Positions 2,072 through 12,650 of a stretch of DNA of 14,933 nucleotides are shown in pieces. The translations under genes and the position numbers were made by a program. The first letter of the stretch is position 1; every line of letters starts with the position of its first letter. The stretch is from a virus: UHGV virus genome UHGV-0050054, one strand, 5' to 3'. Under the pieces are notes generated by a model that saw only the letters and a program-made list of their open reading frames with translations, did not search any database and had not been told where the DNA came from.

Positions 2072-2865
2072 TGGTTGCCTCCTTTGCGAAGCTGGGCGGC
2101 GATGTCTTCGAGTACACCATCAGCGAACGAGCGATCGAAATCGCCTTCCGGCGCATTAGCCATAAACTCAGTAGAGGTAAGAATCATCCTGGCAATATCC
2201 GCTGCGTTCTTCGCAGTATCATCAATAAAACCAGCATCCCAGGCAGCCAGCATTCTGTTCGCCACAAAGTAAGCTCCCTCCTTGCGTGCTTCAGTCTTCA
2301 CTTCAGCCAGGAAAGCGTCGGTGGCCGGGGTTTTGTTATCTGACTCCAGCCACTGGTTGTAGTAATAATCGAACATGCCAGTAGGATAACCACATCCGCT
2401 GTGCACGTGGTCTTTCATAGCAGAACCACACATGCAGTAGTCATTGTCAGTATTACTAATGATGTCGATAAGTTGCTGTGTCCGTTGCTTCAACATCGCA
2501 TTCTCCGCCGCCAGCGCAGAAAACTTCTCGTGCGCCAACTTAACGGCTGCATCTGCCTGCCTCATTGCCTCCATTGCTTTCTCGTTATCAGTTGCTAGCG
2601 CCGCGCACTTGGCTTCAAGTTCGGCAAACTTATCAGCCACTGATTTCGGCCCGTCTTCGCCGCAAGCCTGCATCATTGATGACTCCCATGCTCTTTCTGC
2701 TGCTTCCGATAGCTTTAATTGCACTTCAAGTAATGCAATCTTTGATTCAAGCTCACCAAATTTACGCACCAGATATTCAGCGTTTGTTTCGTTAACCTTT
2801 AAGTCTCGCGGGATGCATTTTCCTTTCAGAAATCCATCCATCTCAATTAGTGACATTTGTTTCAT
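2068..2865 (-). CDS. Hypothetical protein (265 aa from ATG 2865; track gives a GTG start at 2883)
   Basis: Track ORF 2068..2883. ATG at 2865 overlaps the stop of the small ORF 2862..3026 (ATGA), suggesting coupling. No family recognised. Confidence 0.6.
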
Positions 2866-3026
2866 TTCTTCCCACTCCGCCACATCGCATTCAGATATTT
2901 GTTTTGATTCACTGATGGAAAATAATTTCTCTTAAGCAATTCCTCTCTTGATGGCATTGGCTTTACGCGTTGGCGAATAATCATTTCTGCCGGAAGAATG
3001 CCGGGATTGTATGCAAGTCCTCTCAT
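2862..3026 (-). CDS. Small ORF (54 aa) not present in the supplied track
   Basis: ATG at 3026 with AGAGGA RBS 7 nt upstream; manual translation [26 protein letters not shown]...; stop overlaps the next start. Fills an otherwise empty gap in the operon. Confidence 0.35.
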
Positions 3027-3042
3027 GGTAAATTCCTCTTTG

Positions 3043-3357
3043 TTAATTTATTCGTATGCCTGCTCTTTCTTCATCGAGTTTTTTTAGCTTGTATCGCATA
3101 GCTCTTACTGAATAAATTGAGCGGCAGGTTGCAATTGCTATTTCTTCTGCGGAGAACTTACCGAAAAGTGATACTTCGGCTCTTGTCCATCGTCTTCCAC
3201 GAAGTCGGCTAACAATGTCAGCTCCAATCCTTGTTGCTTTCGCCATTACTGCTTTTTCAGTCCTTTCCAGTTTTTCAGCGATAACTTCAACTGGCATTGT
3301 CGCCGCTACTTCGCGCAAGAAATCGACTTCCCATTTCTCCCATGGAGTCTTTTTCAT
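3043..3357 (-). CDS. Hypothetical protein (104 aa), possibly DNA-binding
   Basis: Complete ORF; two segments look HTH-like ([22 protein letters not shown] and [22 protein letters not shown]). Weak RBS. Confidence 0.5.
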
Positions 3358-7026: not shown

Positions 7027-7065
7027 CTGTTGTTTATGCCAAAAATAAAGGCCGACTATGCGGCC
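7027..7065 (-). terminator. Hairpin box copy 1, terminator-like on the minus strand
   Basis: Minus strand: GGCCG-catagt-CGGCC then TTTATTTTTGGCATAAACAACAG. Overlaps the stop of the 156-aa gene. Near-identical copy at 7570..7605. Confidence 0.5.
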
Positions 7066-7535
7066 TAGTAGAATACCCAATTTTCTGTTTCTTGGTTGTG
7101 TCCAAAGTTATATTCAATATCTGGTGTTGATGTATCAATATTCTTCATCCCATCAACAAGAGTTGATACAACAGCAAAATCTTGTTTGATTCTCATTAAA
7201 TGGTATTTCTTCCGGCGCAATAAACTCTCAATGGCAAGTTTCTTCGTTGGGAATGCAAAAGATCTTTCTGCATTTTTTGCTACTTTCTTAATTGCATATC
7301 TATTTCTCCTTTGTTTCCATTCCTGTAACCACTGATTTGGTGCTGGTTTAAAATCAACAATCCAATGCGCAGGAACCAACCATGCATAATGCTCTGTCTG
7401 ATGAAAAGCTATATATTGAAGTGCGAATATTTTGATTCCATCTTCTTCAACTGTCGCCTGGAATCTCCAGAAAACAGGCATTCCATCATGTTCAGTTTCT
7501 GATTCAGGAAAAGGTACGCTCCATGATTTTGTCAT
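7065..7535 (-). CDS. Hypothetical protein (156 aa) encoded in a low-GC cassette
   Basis: Complete ORF with GAGGTGAGAT RBS; visibly AT-richer than neighbours; basic central region (KQRRNRYAIKKVAKNAERSF...LLRRKKYHLMRIKQ). No family recognised. Confidence 0.6.
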   Translation of the reverse strand: MTKSWSVPFPESETEHDGMPVFWRFQATVEEDGIKIFALQYIAFHQTEHYAWLVPAHWIVDFKPAPNQWLQEWKQRRNRYAIKKVAKNAERSFAFPTKKLAIESLLRRKKYHLMRIKQDFAVVSTLVDGMKNIDTSTPDIEYNFGHNQETENWVFY

Positions 7536-7615: not shown

Positions 7616-7804
7616 TTAACTATCATCAATACATGGCACTTTATTCCAGTCGATATCGTTTTTATTGTCGTCCCACATGTCTTTGTTTTTGTATTTCTCG
7701 CTACATCCTAGGCAAATGTTGTATGGCCTACCGATAAGGTTTAACGAAATACGTTGCATTTCATTTGATTCAAACATGTATCCACAGAACTGACATTTAT
7801 GCAT
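7616..7804 (-). CDS. Small Cys-rich protein (62 aa), putative zinc ribbon
   Basis: CxxC at residues 4-7 and 31-34; starts 4 nt after the N stop with GAGGGGTGAG upstream; low-GC like the adjacent 156-aa gene. Confidence 0.55.
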   Translation of the reverse strand: MHKCQFCGYMFESNEMQRISLNLIGRPYNICLGCSEKYKNKDMWDDNKNDIDWNKVPCIDDS

Positions 7805-7807
7805 ATC

Positions 7808-8140
7808 TCACCCCTCATACAGTAGCTTACTGCCTAATTTCATTTTCTGGCGACCAACACAAGTCACACCCATTTCACTGCGTGGCTTGCTGTACCATGT
7901 GCGCTGATTCTTGCGCTCAATACGTTGCAGGTTGCTTTCAATCTGTTCGTGGTATTCAGCCAGCACCGTAAGGTCTATCGGATTCAGTGCGCTTTCTACT
8001 CGTGATTTAGGCTTTCGAGTCAGCGAGAGAATTTTGCGGGTGTCTGGCTTTGCGCTTACCCCAACCAACAGGGGATTTGCTGCTTTCCATTGAGCCTGTT
8101 TCTCTGCGCGACGTTCGCGGCGGCGTGTTTGTGCATCCAT
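7808..8140 (-). CDS. N: Antitermination protein N
   Basis: 110-aa product MDAQTRRRERRAEKQAQWKAANPLLVGVSAKP... matches lambda N as recalled over most of its length, including the Arg-rich N-terminus; AGGAG RBS; nutL upstream. Confidence 0.9.
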   Translation of the reverse strand: MDAQTRRRERRAEKQAQWKAANPLLVGVSAKPDTRKILSLTRKPKSRVESALNPIDLTVLAEYHEQIESNLQRIERKNQRTWYSKPRSEMGVTCVGRQKMKLGSKLLYEG

Positions 8141-8165
8141 CTGGATTCTCCTGTCAGTTAGCTTT

Positions 8166-8385
8166 GGTGGTGTGGTGGCTGGTAGTCTAGCTCCAGCTTG
8201 TTGAGTCTCATTCGGAGGGGTATAACCGGCACCCCAGCGATTTTTCCATGCGACAACGTGCGCGTTATGGCGGCCTTATCGCCCGCGGCTCCCCATCTCG
8301 TCCACGCTATTGCTAGCGTTGGGAGCGCTTCACCGCTCAACAGTAGGTAAGCACTTGCCAGTGACTAGCTGGCTTCACCACACCC
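8166..8385 (-). promoter_or_regulatory. N-leader long-range inverted repeat enclosing a GC-rich core of about 170 nt
   Basis: Arms near 8167..8193 and 8360..8384 are complementary (perfect 9-bp GGTGTGGTG/CACCACACC core plus imperfect extension). Position matches the lambda N-leader hairpin region. Confidence 0.4.
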
Positions 8386-8408
8386 CAAAGCCTTCTGCTT
8401 TGAATGCT

Positions 8409-8439
8409 GCCCTTCTTCAGGGCTTAATTTTTAAGAGCA
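8409..8439 (-). promoter_or_regulatory. nutL: nutL (boxA + boxB)
   Basis: Minus strand reads GCTCTTAA-AAATTAA-GCCCTGAAGAAGGGC: boxB is the canonical lambda hairpin, boxA-like element 7 nt upstream. Confidence 0.85.
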
Positions 8440-8478
8440 TCACCTTCATGGTGGTTAGTGCGTCCTGCTGATGGCTAA

Positions 8479-8507
8479 ATAGTACGATTTGTACTTTATC
8501 GAGTCAA
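8479..8507 (-). promoter_or_regulatory. pL-like promoter with overlapping operator
   Basis: Minus strand TTGACT (8502..8507), 17-nt spacer, TACTAT (8479..8484); palindrome AGTAC-N5-GTACT (8481..8495) overlaps the spacer and -10. Confidence 0.6.
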
Positions 8508-8553
8508 TACAAAATGTTCTAAATATGGTTGGTTTTTTATAACGCTTTGTATT
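8481..8553. promoter_or_regulatory. Putative OL operators (two sites of form A[G/T][T/A]AC-N5-GTAyT)
   Basis: AGTACgatttGTACT at 8481..8495 and ATAACgctttGTATT at 8539..8553, 58 bp apart; the same motif family recurs at OR. Confidence 0.4.
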
Positions 8554-8569
8554 TAATTGGTTTATATTT

Positions 8570-8600
8570 TGGAAAAAGAAAACCCGACACTAAGGTCGGG
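8570..8600 (-). terminator. Intrinsic terminator downstream of cI
   Basis: Minus strand CCCGAC-cttagt-GTCGGG followed by TTTTCTTTTTCC, beginning 33 nt after the cI stop. Confidence 0.7.
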
Positions 8601-8632
8601 TTATTGTTGTGTGCTTTAGAGTGGTGAGGCTG

Positions 8633-9292
8633 TTAACTAAATGTCTCTTCAGGCCACTGGCTGGCGATAACTTTCCCTACTACGGAACAGCTATCATTGC
8701 ATGGAATCATTGGATATTGCTGGTTTAGTGGCTGTAGGAACACCTGACCGCTATCCCTGATCAGTTTCTTGAAGGTAAACTCGTCACCACCAAGTCTGGC
8801 TATGCAGAAATCACCTGGCTCAACAGCCTGCTCAGGGTCAACGAGAATTAACATCCCGTCAGGAAAGCTTGGCTTGGATCCTGTTGGCGCGGTCATGGAA
8901 TTACCTTCAACTTCAAGCCAGAACGCACAATCACTGGCTTTTTTGGTTGTGCTGACCCATCTCTCCGCATCACCTTTGGTAAAGGTTCTAAGCTCAGGCG
9001 AGAACATCCCGGCCTGAACATGAGAAAAAACAGGGTACTCATATTGTTTTTTAACGGGGGCAGATGAGTATTCGCCAACAGGTGAAAATGTACCGTCGTG
9101 GTTGAATGAGACGTTATCAATACCAAGGTATTTAAACACCACACCAATCTCGTCAAGAGATGGATGACGAGATCCGCGCAACCAGTGACCAATTCCACCC
9201 TGCGTCATACCAAGCTCTTCAGCTAACTTCTCTTGAGTTATGCCGAGCTCTTTCATTCTGGATCTAGCCAGTTCATACCATTTCATTTTCAT
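8633..9292 (-). CDS. cI: CI-type prophage repressor (N-terminal HTH, C-terminal LexA/S24-like domain)
   Basis: C-terminal half ([38 protein letters not shown]...[28 protein letters not shown]...[11 protein letters not shown]) matches lambda CI as recalled, apart from a few substitutions; the N-terminal HTH differs from lambda. Track ORF begins at a TTG (9334); ATG 9292 or 9286 is more likely. Confidence 0.9.
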
Positions 9293-9301
9293 ACCCTTAT
9301 T

Positions 9302-9375
9302 ATTACGCTCTGTACTAAAACCATCCATGCACAAGATGTATTTTTTGTTTGCATTCTAAAAGTACATATCGTATT
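9302..9375. promoter_or_regulatory. Putative OR operators
   Basis: ATTACgctctGTACT at 9302..9316 and AGTACatatcGTATT at 9361..9375, 60 bp apart; the second overlaps the PR spacer and -10. Confidence 0.4.
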
Positions 9376-9377
9376 AT
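9349..9377 (+). promoter_or_regulatory. PR-like promoter
   Basis: TTGCAT (9349..9354), 17-nt spacer, TATTAT (9372..9377), about 27 nt upstream of the cro ATG. Confidence 0.55.
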
Positions 9378-9403
9378 TGTTTCATGGTTACTATGGAGGG
9401 CAT

Positions 9404-9619
9404 ATGAGCAACCTACGAAAATATCGAGAGTCACTGAATATCTCTCAAACAACACTTGCTAAGGCAGTTGGATGCACACAGGGAGCTATCGGACATTGGG
9501 AATCTGGTCGTCGCTTCCCAGACCTTAAAACATGCCGTGCTCTTGTTGAGTGCCTAAACAAGTTAGGCGCAAAAGTCAGTCTTGATGACGTGTTCCCGCC
9601 GGAACACAAAGCCGCTTAA
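9404..9619 (+). CDS. cro: Cro-like repressor (HTH, XRE type; not lambda-Cro-like)
   Basis: 72-aa product from ATG 9404 with GGAGGG RBS (track ORF 9233..9619 extends upstream in frame). HTH motif ISQTTLAKAVGCTQGAIGHWESG; divergent from cI across OR. Confidence 0.8.
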   Translation: MSNLRKYRESLNISQTTLAKAVGCTQGAIGHWESGRRFPDLKTCRALVECLNKLGAKVSLDDVFPPEHKAA

Positions 9620-9628
9620 GACATTCCA

Positions 9629-9659
9629 GCTCTTACACATCCCAGCCCTGAAAAAGGGC
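9629..9659 (+). promoter_or_regulatory. nutR: nutR (boxA + boxB)
   Basis: GCTCTTACA ... GCCCTGAAAAAGGGC, matching lambda nutR boxA and boxB as recalled. Confidence 0.85.
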
Positions 9660-9725
9660 ATCAAATTAAACCACACCTATGATGTATGCATTTATTTGCA
9701 TTCCTTCAATCAATTGTTATCTAAG
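9660..9725 (+). terminator. tR1-like Rho-dependent termination region (by homology only)
   Basis: ATCAAATTAAACCACACCTATG...TGCATTTATTTGCAT...CAATCAATTGTTATCTAAGGAAATACT closely resembles the lambda nutR-to-cII interval containing tR1; no intrinsic hairpin plus T run. Confidence 0.4.
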
Positions 9726-9738
9726 GAAATACTGACAT

Positions 9739-10032
9739 ATGGTTCGTGCAAACAAACGCAACGAGGCTCTACGAATCGAGAGTGCGTTGCTTAACAAAAT
9801 CGCAATGCTTGGAACTGAGAAGACAGCGGAAGCTGTGGGCGTTGATAAGTCGCAGATCAGCAGGTGGAAGAGGGACTGGATTCCAAAGTTCTCAATGCTG
9901 CTTGCTGTACTTGAATGGGGTGTTGTCGACGACGACATGGCTCGATTGGCACGACAAGTTGCTTCGATTCTCACCAATAAAAAACGCCCGGCGGCAACCG
10001 AGCGTTCTGATCAAATACAAATGGAATTTTAA
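9739..10032 (+). CDS. cII: Transcriptional activator CII
   Basis: 97-aa product MVRANKRNEALRIESALLNKIAMLGTEKTAEAVGVDKSQISRWKRDWIPKF... matches lambda CII as recalled; AAGGA RBS. Confidence 0.92.
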   Translation: MVRANKRNEALRIESALLNKIAMLGTEKTAEAVGVDKSQISRWKRDWIPKFSMLLAVLEWGVVDDDMARLARQVASILTNKKRPAATERSDQIQMEF

Positions 10033-10054: not shown

Positions 10055-10327
10055 ATGCGAAACAAAGGCTTTAATCCATCTGATACACACAAAGAAGCTA
10101 AGCGTTTGCGCTTCCTTCGTTCCATTGATGAAAGAACTCAAATCTCTTTTGTGAAAGTTGCCAGAACTGAGCTTCTGAAGGCTGAGGCGAGGGCGTTGCT
10201 CCCGTCTCTACCAAAAGAGGATGGATATACGTTCATTCCAAACGCATTTCTGGAAAAGCTGCTCAAAGAAGACATATCCGTAAGTCAGTTTAACGATGTT
10301 CTTAAGGTCTTTCGTCAAGGCAGGTAG
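10055..10327 (+). CDS. Hypothetical protein (90 aa) between cII and the initiator gene
   Basis: ATG 10055 with GAGG RBS 7 nt upstream; in frame with the longer track ORF 9746..10327. Stop TAG lies 2 nt before the initiator ATG. Confidence 0.55.
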   Translation: MRNKGFNPSDTHKEAKRLRFLRSIDERTQISFVKVARTELLKAEARALLPSLPKEDGYTFIPNAFLEKLLKEDISVSQFNDVLKVFRQGR

Positions 10328-10329
10328 TT

Positions 10330-11277
10330 ATGAGCAATACAGCAAAAATCTACGATTTCAGCGCCGCACACGAGCGCAGGAGCAACAGGATGGAGAACCA
10401 GAAAACTGGTTACATTCCGTTGTACCGGAGCATTCTGAAACAGTCATGGGCGAAAGATGTTTATCTTCGCACCCTGTGGGAAAACCTTCTCCTGAATGCC
10501 GCCAGAAAGCCATACAAAGCGAATTTCAAAGGTCATGAATGGCATCTGCAACCCGGTCAACTGGTTGTGACAGCAGCTGATTTAGGTCTTCAGTTATGCG
10601 ACAGGCATGGCAAGCCGGCAAGCCGTGATCAGGTTGAGCGGATGCTTCAGGTTTTTGTGAAAGAGGGGATGATCACCATTGATGGAGAGAAGCAAAAAGG
10701 TCGTGTGATCACCATCACAAATTACCATGAATATGCTCAAAAAATGGACAATTCACCCGCACATGAAGCCGCACAAACAACCGCACATGATGCCGCACAT
10801 GATGAAGCCAGTAATGGCGCGGCTTTCAGCGTACATACCGCACATGAAAGCGCACATGAAGCCGCACAAACAACCGCACATCATGAACAAGAAGGTATTA
10901 ACAAGAATATAAATAATACCCCCCTACCCCCCAATGGGGGAGGCGATGGGCAGGTTAAACATGAACGTCGCAAGGCAGAACGAATCGACTACGAATCCTT
11001 CCTGAACGCCTACAACACCGAAGTCGGTGACAGACTGCCACACGCTGTTGCGGTCAACGAGAAACGCAAACGCCGCCTGAAGAAAATCATCCCGCAACTG
11101 AAAACGCCAAACGTGGACGGTTTCAGAGCGTATGTCAGGGCGTTTGTGCATCAGGCCAAGCCGTTTTACTTCGGAGACAACGACACTGGCTGGACGGCAG
11201 ATTTTGATTACCTGCTGAGGGAAGATTCGTTAACGGGAGTTCGGGAAGGGAAGTTTGCAGACAGGGGGATTGCATGA
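10330..11277 (+). CDS. Replication initiator, lambda O-like N-terminus, with internal iteron origin
   Basis: 315-aa product; [10 protein letters not shown] resembles lambda O MTNTAKILNF; repeated [10 protein letters not shown] segments coincide with DNA iterons; stop overlaps the helicase start. Confidence 0.85.
10758..10945. repeat. Putative replication origin: iterons, AT-rich tract, GC-rich hairpin
   Basis: Identical 31-bp blocks at 10758..10788 and 10851..10881; at least 5 GCACATGA motifs; AT-rich 10886..10918; CCTACCCCCC-AAT-GGGGGAGG hairpin at about 10925..10945. Same layout as lambda ori inside O. Confidence 0.6.
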
Positions 11278-12650
11278 AACAGGATATCGAAGCGAGCGTT
11301 ATCGGTGGCTTGCTGATTGGTGGATTAACACCAACTGCCAGTGACGTTCTGGCAACGCTTGAGCCGGAAGCGTTTTCAATTCCGCTCTACAGGAAAGCCT
11401 TCGAAGTTATCCGTAAGCAGGCGAGAAACAGAAATCTAATCGACGCGCTGATGGTTGCCGAGGCGTGCGGAGAGGAGCATTTCACGTCAATCCTGATGAC
11501 CAGCAAAAACTGCCCGAGTGCCGCAAACCTGAAGGGATATGCCGGAATGGTCGCGGATAACTATCACCGCCGTCTGGTGCTGGAAATCATGGATGAAATG
11601 CGTGAACCAATTCAGAGCGGAACCATCGACGCATCGAGTCAGGCGATGGATGAACTTGTAAAGCGTCTCTCAGCCATCAGAAAGCCCCGTGACGAGGTTA
11701 AACCGGTACGCTTAGGGGAAATCATCACTGACTACACCGACACGCTTGACAGGCGTCTGAGGAACGGAGAAGAGTCCGATACCCTGAAGACCGGAATCGA
11801 AGAACTTGATGCCATCACCGGAGGGATGAACGCAGAAGACCTTGTGATAATCGCTGCTCGTCCTGGTATGGGGAAAACCGAACTGGCGCTGAAGATTGCC
11901 GAAGGCGTTGCAAGCCGCGTTATTCCTGGTTCTGACGTCCGGCGCGGAGTGTTGATTTTCTCGATGGAAATGAGTGCATTGCAGATTGCAGAGCGAAGTA
12001 TTGCCAACGCCGGGAGGATGTCGGTTAGCGTGCTGCGAAATCCTGCATCGATGGATGACGAAGGCTGGGCGCGCGTTGCTAACGGCATGAGTCAGCTTGC
12101 AGATTTGGATGTATGGGTAGTCGATGCCTCGCGGTTATCGGTCGAAGAAATACGCTCAATCGCAGAACGGCACAAACAGGAAAATCCAAACCTCTCACTC
12201 ATCATGGCGGATTATCTTGGCCTGATTGAGAAGCCGAAAGCAGACCGCAACGACCTCGCAATTGCTCACATCTCAGGAAGCCTGAAGGCGATGGCGAAAG
12301 ACTTGAAAACGCCTGTTATCTCCCTGAGTCAGCTTTCGCGCGATGTTGAGAAGCGACCAAACAAACGCCCGACAAACGCAGATTTGCGTGATTCAGGAAG
12401 CATTGAGCAGGACGCAGACTCAATCATCATGCTCTATCGGGAAGCGGTATATGACGAGAACAGTAGCGCCGCGCCATTTGCTGAAATCATCGTGACGAAA
12501 AACCGTTTTGGCTCACTTGGTACGGTTTACCAGCGGTTCTGTAACGGACACTTTGTTGCATGTGACCAGGATGAAGCCAGACAGATTTGCACAGCATCAA
12601 ATGCACCTGCTGCGCGTGGCAGACGATATGCACAAGGGGCGGACGTATGA
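11274..12650 (+). CDS. Replicative DNA helicase, DnaB family
   Basis: 458-aa product with Walker A-like [15 protein letters not shown] and DnaB-type C-terminal motifs; ATGA overlap with the initiator gene. Confidence 0.9.

Follow-up and report, generated by a model that had tools for sequence, protein, structure and literature searches.

A phage repressor variant named CI2c has been described that has its carboxy terminus in common with lambda CI and a unique amino terminus (Smith et al. 2012, PMC3430580). The CI proteins of the Eru2 and Eru3 Shiga toxin (Stx) phages, which are 61% identical to lambda CI, form Clade I together with it, and the supplementary tables of the same work place AP005153 and AP005154 in Eru3 and phage 2851 in Eru2 (PMC8951638). 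In AP005153, six 17-bp "putative operators" are annotated, three in the right operator region (OR) and three in the left operator region (OL). For VT2-Sakai, OR1, OR2, and OR3 are listed in Table S1 of a 2023 paper, which reports that all six VT2-Sakai operators were used as oligonucleotides (PMC10742460). Beyond the Stx phages, the nearest relatives of the epsilon34 repressor N-terminus were found to be L, VT2-Sa, and Nil2, and the epsilon34 operators were predicted as WTACRAWWTGTAT (PMC2629481); Salmonella phage ST64T is 99.9% identical to phage L (PMC8022706). Here we analyzed the immunity region, with the repressor gene cI and its operators (positions 8479-9404), of the UHGV virus genome UHGV-0050054, a DNA of 14,933 nucleotides (nt) referred to below as the window, and compared it with these systems.

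On the basis of sequence identities, motif enrichment, and the conservation of half-sites and site positions, we put at roughly 85% the probability that this region is an intact lambda-style lysis-lysogeny switch, predicted to be functional, of the VT2-Sakai/Stx2-II/Nil2 immunity type. It is flanked by lambda-type modules, N/nutL on one side and nutR/cII on the other, and its carrier is very likely a mosaic phage or prophage of the P22-like kind.

RESULTS

Identity of the immunity module

The non-lambda block of the region was the immunity module of Stx phages, with DNA that was 92.9% identical (megablast and tblastn). Its carriers are VT2-Sakai (Sp5), Stx2-II and Stx1 (Morioka V526), Nil2, 1717, 2851, YYZ-2008, and the PA series, and the 582 bp specific to the type (9044-9625) were present in 786 of 5426 complete Escherichia coli genomes (~14%). 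Lambda similarity was absent by blastn from 8474-8574, which contains OL and the leftward promoter pL, and from 9044-9625, which contains the N-terminal half of cI, OR, and cro. The locus did not belong to imm-lambda, as the N-terminal domain of its repressor, its Cro, and its OL/OR DNA were all non-lambda. Since the DNA-binding domain, Cro, and the operators all differ, its immunity specificity is expected to differ from that of lambda.

A first-pass annotation of the window, made from the sequence alone, had described N/nutL, nutR/tR1/cII, and the C-terminal domain of cI as near-identical to lambda and had proposed a different immunity specificity from the cI DNA-binding domain and Cro. Both parts of this description were borne out, the former by nucleotide identities of 90.0-97.9% (blastn) and the latter by blastn, protein alignment, and a motif scan. 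Also as described there, rexA and rexB were not found between cI and pL; no open reading frame (ORF) of at least 40 amino acids was present within 8474-8632, and a terminator (8581-8602) follows the cI stop at 8633. By contrast, the operator motif, which had been called distinct, is not new: the sites are already present in the GenBank records AP005153 and AP005154 and among the oligonucleotides of PMC10742460, the motif is shared with phages L and ST64T, and its TAC-N5-GTA core occurs in the epsilon34 prediction. The module was not found to match a catalogued type with other operators; its own type, VT2-Sakai/Stx2-II/Nil2, has the same annotated sites. The phages that had been suggested for comparison (lambda, 434, 21, P22, HK97, and phi80) would miss these true relatives. 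The immunity module and its predicted operators are thus already known and catalogued in Stx phages, the operators as annotated predictions.

We compared the window with the Stx phages VT2-Sakai, Stx2-II, and Stx1 Morioka (AP005154/AP005153). The lambda-type C-terminal domain and the placement of pL and of the rightward promoter pR were the same, and the six putative operators of AP005153 coincided with six sites in the window. Eleven of the 12 half-sites were identical to those of AP005153, the exception being the left half of OL3 (ATAAC in the window, ACAAC in AP005153). The divergence from the Stx phages (~7% of nucleotides) lay, within OR and OL, mostly in the central spacers of the operators and in the DNA between them. 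The surroundings differed as well. N/nutL and cII are lambda-type in the window, whereas AP005153 has an N annotated as HK97-like and a cII annotated as HK022-like, and no stx gene context was present in the window. In addition, the interval between OL and cI holds only a terminator in the window but ~1.5 kb of extra ORFs in the Stx phages. As a consequence of the missing accessory ORFs, OL2 and OR2 are 822 bp apart here, compared with ~2.2 kb in the Stx phages.

Relative to lambda, the gene order and the number of operators per side (three) were the same, as was the position of OR2, ~42-43 bp upstream of the start of a predicted leaderless transcript from the cI maintenance promoter pRM; N, nutL, nutR, tR1, cII, and the establishment promoter pRE were near-identical. 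The DNA-binding domain of the window repressor, however, is shorter than that of lambda, is of the HTH_3 type, and has no counterpart of the lambda N-terminal arm region. The operators also differ, being 15-bp AKWAC-N5-GTAYT sites in the window and annotated 17-bp sites such as TATCACCGCCAGTGGTA (OL1) in lambda. Their centers are spaced at 25/33 bp (OL) and 26/33 bp (OR) in the window, as against 24/20 bp (OL) and 24/23 bp (OR) in lambda.

The cI repressor and Cro

The repressor and Cro genes of the window are the following:

8633-9292, minus strand: cI, 219 amino acids; residues 10-57 match Pfam HTH_3, and residues 86-208 match Peptidase_S24

9404-9619, plus strand: cro, 71 amino acids, an HTH_3 protein (Pfam HTH_3, E=1.4e-12)

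Positions 8639-9043 matched the DNA for the C-terminal domain (3' half) of lambda cI at 93.6% nucleotide identity (blastn), and the encoded domain differed from that of lambda at 4 of ~135 residues (~97% amino acid identity). The Peptidase_S24 match was strong (E=3e-28), and the segments VQAGMF, GNSM, and FKKL were all identical to those of lambda cI; following the established lambda assignments, we take VQAG to be the Ala-Gly cleavage site and GNSM and FKKL to hold the catalytic Ser and Lys. The first ~85 residues aligned poorly with lambda cI, the N-terminal domain giving a match of only E ~1e-3. These comparisons strongly suggest that cI is a natural chimera in which a non-lambda HTH_3 N-terminal domain (~residues 1-85) is joined at the linker to a lambda-type S24 C-terminal domain. 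From the ~97% identity of the latter to lambda CI, we infer RecA-stimulated autocleavage of cI upon SOS induction. Such a domain would provide dimerization and RecA-stimulated self-cleavage at the Ala-Gly bond by the Ser/Lys dyad, and it would probably also make dimer-dimer contacts.

In helix 2 of the N-terminal domain, two acidic residues within QEKLAEEL aligned with acidic residues within lambda QESVADKM, namely E34 and D38, which we take to form the positive-control patch. Residues 1-83 of cI were 95.2% identical to VT2-Sakai and 96.4% identical to Stx2-II, 1717, YYZ-2008, and PA phages in tblastn, and the N-terminal domain was 95.7% identical to that of Stx1 Morioka over residues 1-69. 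By its association with Eru2/Eru3 phages, the window cI probably belongs to Clade I of PMC8951638.

Cro had no match to the lambda Cro family in Pfam and could not be aligned meaningfully with lambda Cro; 70 of its 71 residues (98.6%) were identical to the Cro of Stx1 (Morioka) (AP005153 ORF B58). The recognition helices of cI (MTQGGIGHW) and Cro (CTQGAIGHW) were alike, and the two proteins matched each other in BLASTP (E=5e-13), as is expected of proteins that compete for the same sites. A PDB sequence search found no solved structure of this repressor/Cro type, and the best PDB match of Cro, 28tn ("lambda repressor-like protein," E=2e-16), has a different recognition helix. The 434 repressor and Cro and P22 c2 belong to the same Pfam HTH_3 class, with marginal similarity to the window proteins (E 0.006 to 0.4), and in 434, too, the recognition helices of repressor and Cro are closely similar. 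The DNA-binding domain of the window would be a five-helix HTH_3 domain like those of 434 and P22. The operators of 434 are 14-bp ACAA-N6-TTGT sites and those of P22 are 18 bp long, both unlike the sites in the window. We also considered the repressor of BAA2326, an O104:H4 Stx2 phage, which is likewise ~61% identical to lambda CI. It proved to be of a different type: the operators footprinted for it, ATAACTGTGCGTAATG among them, were absent from the window, and its DNA-binding domain is described as lambda-like (PMC5977221).

Six predicted operators in two triplets

The promoters and operators of the region are listed from left to right, the unstranded sites being given without a strand:

8479-8507, minus strand: pL, with -35 TTGACT (8507-8502), a 17-bp spacer, and -10 TACTAT (8484-8479); 9/12 in a consensus scan

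8481-8495: OL1, AGTACGATTTGTACT, perfectly palindromic and located within the pL spacer and -10; exact motif match on both strands

8506-8520: OL2, AATACAAAATGTTCT (AGAACATTTTGTATT on the minus strand), abutting or overlapping the -35 of pL; exact motif match on the minus strand and operator in AP005153

8539-8553: OL3, ATAACGCTTTGTATT; exact motif match, annotated in AP005153

9299-9327, minus strand: predicted pRM, weak, with -35 TGGATG (9327-9322), a 17-bp spacer, and -10 AATAAT (9304-9299), read from the sequence

9302-9316: OR3, ATTACGCTCTGTACT, inside the spacer and -10 of pRM; exact motif match, VT2-Sakai OR3 being TATTACGCTCTGTACTG

9328-9342: OR2, TGCACAAGATGTATT, whose left half (TGCAC) is degenerate and which abuts the -35 of pRM; VT2-Sakai OR2 is ATGCACAATGTGTATTT

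9348-9377, plus strand: pR, with -35 TTTGCA (9348-9353), an 18-bp spacer, and -10 TATTAT (9372-9377); 9/12 in a consensus scan

9361-9375: OR1, AGTACATATCGTATT, in the spacer and -10 of pR; exact motif match, VT2-Sakai OR1 being AAGTACATATTGTATTT

When the whole window (14.9 kb) was scanned for AKWAC-N5-GTAYT, six strand matches were obtained, representing five distinct sites, compared with 0.06 expected; none of 200 shuffled sequences reached that number. In AP005153, the equivalent of OL1 is the "putative operator" TAGTACGATATGTACTT, and the VT2-Sakai sequences listed in PMC10742460 match the sites of the window. From start to start, the sites are laid out as OL1-25 bp-OL2-33 bp-OL3 and OR3-26 bp-OR2-33 bp-OR1. 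At the sequence level, this is the tripartite lambdoid architecture, with three related, partly palindromic sites per side that overlap pR/pRM and pL. Six 15-bp sites of the form A(G/T/A)(T/A)AC-N5-GT(A/T)(C/T)T, OR2 having a degenerate left half, are the predicted targets of both the repressor and Cro.

The first-pass annotation had proposed four operators in two pairs ~58-60 bp apart, one pair overlapping each promoter. All four were present, at 58 and 59 bp, and the scan confirmed their enrichment, but OL2 and the degenerate OR2 had been missed. With these two sites the arrangement becomes two triplets, of which the proposed pairs are the outer members, and the half-sites of OL2 and OR2 are conserved in divergent relatives. 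The proposed overlap with promoters applied to OL1 in pL, to OR1 in pR (at the spacer and -10 in both cases), and to OR3 in pRM; OL3 overlaps no identifiable promoter. Given the example of OR1 and pR, a promoter reading rightward from OL3 was considered as well and rejected, the only candidate being weak (8/12) and not conserved in AP005153.

The left-to-right order of the spacings was the same in OL (25 then 33 bp) and in OR (26 then 33 bp). It follows that OL1 and OL2 are 25 bp apart but OR1 and OR2 are 33 bp apart, unlike the near-even spacings of lambda.

Conservation in related loci

With Cro as the query, we next retrieved 86 related loci from genomes in IMG/VR and GTDB; these contained 34 distinct OR sequences. 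Among these variants, only 3 of the 30 half-site columns varied, compared with 12 of 15 in the central spacers and 48 of 70 in the other intergenic DNA (Fisher p=5e-9 for half-site columns versus all other columns). No half-site column varied in OR1 (0/10), and one varied in OR3 (1/10). The relatives most divergent by Cro identity were an Enterobacteriaceae metagenome-assembled genome (L088, 80%), an Erwinia phyllosphaerae prophage (L089, 78%), and Salmonella phage ST64T (L093, 70%). In all three, the half-sites of OR1, OR3, OL1, and OL2 were kept, although spacers and flanks differed. In OR2, all five spacer columns and the flanks varied, while L088 and L089 retained GCAC-N5-GTATT and ST64T retained CAC-N5-GTATT.

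The positions of the sites were conserved as well. OR3 and OR2 were 26 bp apart in all 86 loci. A T-run between OR2 and the -35 of pR (9341-9347) varied in length, so that the distance from OR2 to OR1 was 32, 33, 34, and 35 bp in 14, 59, 12, and 1 loci, respectively. The constancy of the one distance and the variation of the other suggest that OR2 is placed relative to pRM and not to pR. On the left side, OL1 and OL2 were 25-26 bp apart in L088, L089, and ST64T, and OL2 and OL3 were 30 bp apart in the Erwinia and Salmonella relatives, which retain the same order of spacings. The compact arrangement, with OL2 and OR2 near 822 bp apart and no accessory genes, was the commonest among the related loci.

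Half-sites and tripartite layout persisted in all three of these relatives, although the Erwinia prophage and ST64T/L have a different C-terminal domain of cI. In the Erwinia locus (2222-3216) and the ST64T locus, Cro, the recognition helix, and the operators are of the same family as in the window, and the C-terminal domains of cI are different, non-lambda S24 domains, which indicates that the DNA-binding and C-terminal domains reassort at the linker. In the Salmonella L/ST64T immC region, the TAC-N5-GTA core, the tripartite layout, and the spacings were the same as in the window, and the recognition helices of cI and Cro were near-identical; overall, the N-terminal domain of cI was 52% identical and Cro 70% identical. 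The cI C-terminal domain of L/ST64T is not lambda-like but is still S24-type by alignment with the Erwinia homologue. These phages have a Salmonella host and P22-type flanks (gene 24 and c1). The operators predicted for epsilon34 in PMC2629481 have the same TAC-N5-GTA core as those of the window.

Promoters and the predicted switch

The implied start of pL (~8472-8473) coincided with the start of the lambda homology. For pRM, transcription would start at ~9292, the A of the cI ATG, giving a leaderless transcript. The segment GTAATAAT followed by 6 nt and ATG was kept in the window, the Erwinia prophage, and ST64T; the cI start at 9292 was also kept in the latter two, the conserved start being MK(M/R/T)..W. 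The -35-like hexamer adjoining OR2 is TGGATG in the window, TTGTTA in the Erwinia prophage, and TTGTCA in ST64T, and the pRM -35 is placed at the same bases in Sato's annotation. In AP005153, cI (L001, 1501-2196) is annotated from an upstream ATG (MDGSSTERNNKDMKMKW...), running through OR3 and the predicted pRM, and similar upstream extensions of cI occur in the ORF listings of L088, L089, and ST64T.

From the arrangement of these elements we infer binding, activation from OR2, cooperativity, looping between OL and OR over ~820 bp, and the leaderless start. OL1 and OR1 would block the lytic promoters pL and pR, in each of which the site lies on the spacer and -10; OL2 adjoins the -35 of pL. 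The center of OR2 is ~43 bp upstream of the predicted pRM start, and lambda CI activates pRM from about that position; OR2 would likewise activate the weak pRM from ~-43. At high levels of repressor, OR3, which fills the spacer and -10 of pRM, would shut off cI. Establishment transcription would be supplied by the lambda-type cII and pRE, and looping between OL and OR over ~820 bp may occur.

Alternative explanations

Several observations weigh against an intact switch of the VT2-Sakai type. The left half-site of OR2 (TGCAC) is poor. The predicted pRM fell below the threshold of the promoter scan, and its -35 matches the consensus at 3 of 6 positions. OL3, well kept within E. coli, was weakly conserved in distant relatives. 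The spacings of OL and OR run in the same direction instead of being near-even and roughly symmetric as in lambda, and with OR1 and OR2 33 bp apart here (32-35 bp in relatives), compared with 24 bp in lambda, lambda-style cooperativity between them is not assured. The sole binding data concern lambda CI, with micromolar apparent Kd, on VT2-Sakai oligonucleotides (PMC10742460); no experiment on binding of the cognate repressor or Cro to the six sites was found in the literature searched.

One alternative is that only four operators are bound, two per side ~59 bp apart, with OL2 and OR2 non-functional. The outer four sites are indeed the best consensus matches, the left half of OR2 has two mismatches, and the OR2-OR1 spacing varies. 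However, OL2 fits the pattern of the first-pass annotation exactly, on the other strand, and keeps a distance of 25-26 bp to OL1 in the relatives from E. coli, Erwinia, and Salmonella alike. In OR2, GCAC-N5-GTATT is conserved while 5 of 5 spacer columns and the flanks change, and the site stays 26 bp from OR3, adjoining the pRM -35, in every relative. A four-operator arrangement is accordingly very improbable. Still less likely is a remnant of a decayed or cryptic prophage, with a switch that has ceased to work, as has been suggested for VT2-Sakai. There, cI is split in the RefSeq record and a premature stop probably ablates DNA binding (PMC3430580), and many of the E. coli copies of the type are in prophages that may or may not be active. 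In the window, on the other hand, cI (219 amino acids), cro, N, and cII are all uninterrupted ORFs. Furthermore, positions 8100-9750 have near-identical counterparts in two isolated phages. The P22-like phage vB_EcoP-720R6, available as a partial genome record, covered 100% of the query at 99.0% identity, and vB_EcoP-683R2, with a complete genome record, covered 88% at 98.9%.

Two other alternatives leave the switch intact and concern its specificity and logic. The specificity may not be private to the E. coli/Stx group but functionally the same as that of Salmonella L/ST64T, making the phages cross-immune. In favor of this are the 70% identity of Cro and its helix, CTQGAIGH(W/Y), as well as the cI helix (M/K)TQG(G/A)IGHW. 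In addition, the ST64T sites read AATAC-N5-GTACT (OL1 and OL2), ATTAC-N5-GTATT (OR3), and AGTAC-N5-GTATT (OR1), and their 25-bp and ~60-bp spacings are those of the window. Yet overall identity between the N-terminal domains of cI is only 52%, and the specificities could be set apart by preferences in the central spacer, contacts in the flanks, and the different C-terminal domain; judged from these sequence comparisons, cross-immunity appears somewhat unlikely. The other alternative sees the chimera as a natural domain swap in which the lambda cooperativity and cleavage domain acts on a foreign DNA-binding domain, the cooperative pair in OR being OR2-OR3, or none, with a switch logic unlike that of lambda. 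This is conditional on pairwise cooperativity requiring a lambda-like spacing, and we consider it doubtful. An intact six-operator switch of the VT2-Sakai/Stx2-II/Nil2 type is the interpretation that we prefer.

Lambda-like flanks and neighboring genes

The features on the two sides of the module are as follows:

7808-8140, minus strand: N antiterminator gene, lambda-type (Pfam N36, E=3.8e-23; 90% nucleotide identity to lambda N)

8379-8473, minus strand: pL leader and nutL (boxB hairpin 8409-8423), 97.9% identical to lambda 35489-35583 (blastn)

8581-8602, minus strand: intrinsic terminator of hairpin and T-run directly after cI, an 8-bp GC-rich stem followed by TTCTTTTT

9626-10032, plus strand: lambda-type nutR (9629-9659), tR1 region, and cII (9739-10032), 96% identical to lambda 38247-38649

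9748-9761, minus strand: -35 repeats of pRE, TTGC-N6-TTGC, located as TTGCGTTTGTTTGC

Positions 7839-8187 matched lambda N at 90.0% (blastn), and the first 58 residues of the window N were exactly those of lambda N in a protein alignment. The lambda homology of the pL leader stops at the predicted transcription start of pL. The surroundings of the terminator were 86% identical over 36 bp to lambda 35799-35834, at and just past the rexB stop codon (the rexB end being 35825). To the right, 9626-10028 matched lambda nutR/tR1/cII at 96.0% (blastn), and cII (Pfam Phage_CII, E=5e-48) differed from lambda cII at 2 of 97 residues.

Within the N leader, a 191-bp GC-rich segment (8188-8378) takes the place of the ~80 bp that in lambda separate nutL from the ribosome-binding site of N, where the RNase III site of lambda is located. 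Its flanks, 8379-8400 and 8160-8187, pair as a long stem, and the 333-nt N leader folds at -123 kcal/mol (z=-3.2). This variant was present in 60 of the 5426 E. coli genomes and in phage vB_EcoP-720R6, and a third variant was present in vB_EcoP-683R2. A repeated mobile element was considered and rejected, given a median of one copy per genome and other variants at the equivalent position in vB_EcoP-683R2 and lambda; the segment has the look of a variable loop on the N-leader stem. Scans of the entire window for Rfam families and tRNAs gave no matches, and the segment belongs to no known RNA family.

Three small ORFs without a Pfam domain, at 10055-10327 (plus strand), 7616-7804 (minus strand), and 7065-7535 (minus strand), matched the PHROG families of unknown function phrog_2519, phrog_19863, and phrog_1636. 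Of these, the 62-amino acid protein encoded downstream of N looks zinc-ribbon-like, with CxxC pairs at two places (CQFC and CLGC), and the 90-amino acid ORF separates cII from the O-like gene, an interval that is empty in lambda. The O-like replication gene (10330-11277) contains five overlapping repeat copies at 10745-10899, with 12-bp-phased CCGCACAT units, which encode a His/Ala-rich stretch; by analogy with the lambda ori inside O, these are probably origin iterons. The following gene (11274-12650, plus strand) encodes a 458-amino acid protein. Its sequence, judged by eye, and the annotations of neighboring phages (P22 gene 12 type) point to a helicase of the DnaB type and not to lambda P. 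With an O-like initiator and such a helicase, the lambda-like early-regulation block gives way, shortly past cII, to a replication block that is not lambda-type.

DISCUSSION

In O157:H7, the VT2-Sakai immunity type governs how several Stx1 and Stx2 prophages (Sakai Sp5, Stx2-II, 1717, and 2851) are induced. The compact, lambda-flanked version in the window, with intact ORFs and no accessory genes between OL and cI, would be a handy model for measuring the cognate repressor-operator interaction, and it would also be suited to asking how a lambda C-terminal domain behaves on another operator geometry. If OR2 and OR3 were the cooperative pair, this would be a different switch logic in spite of the lambda C-terminal domain, with looping over only ~820 bp.

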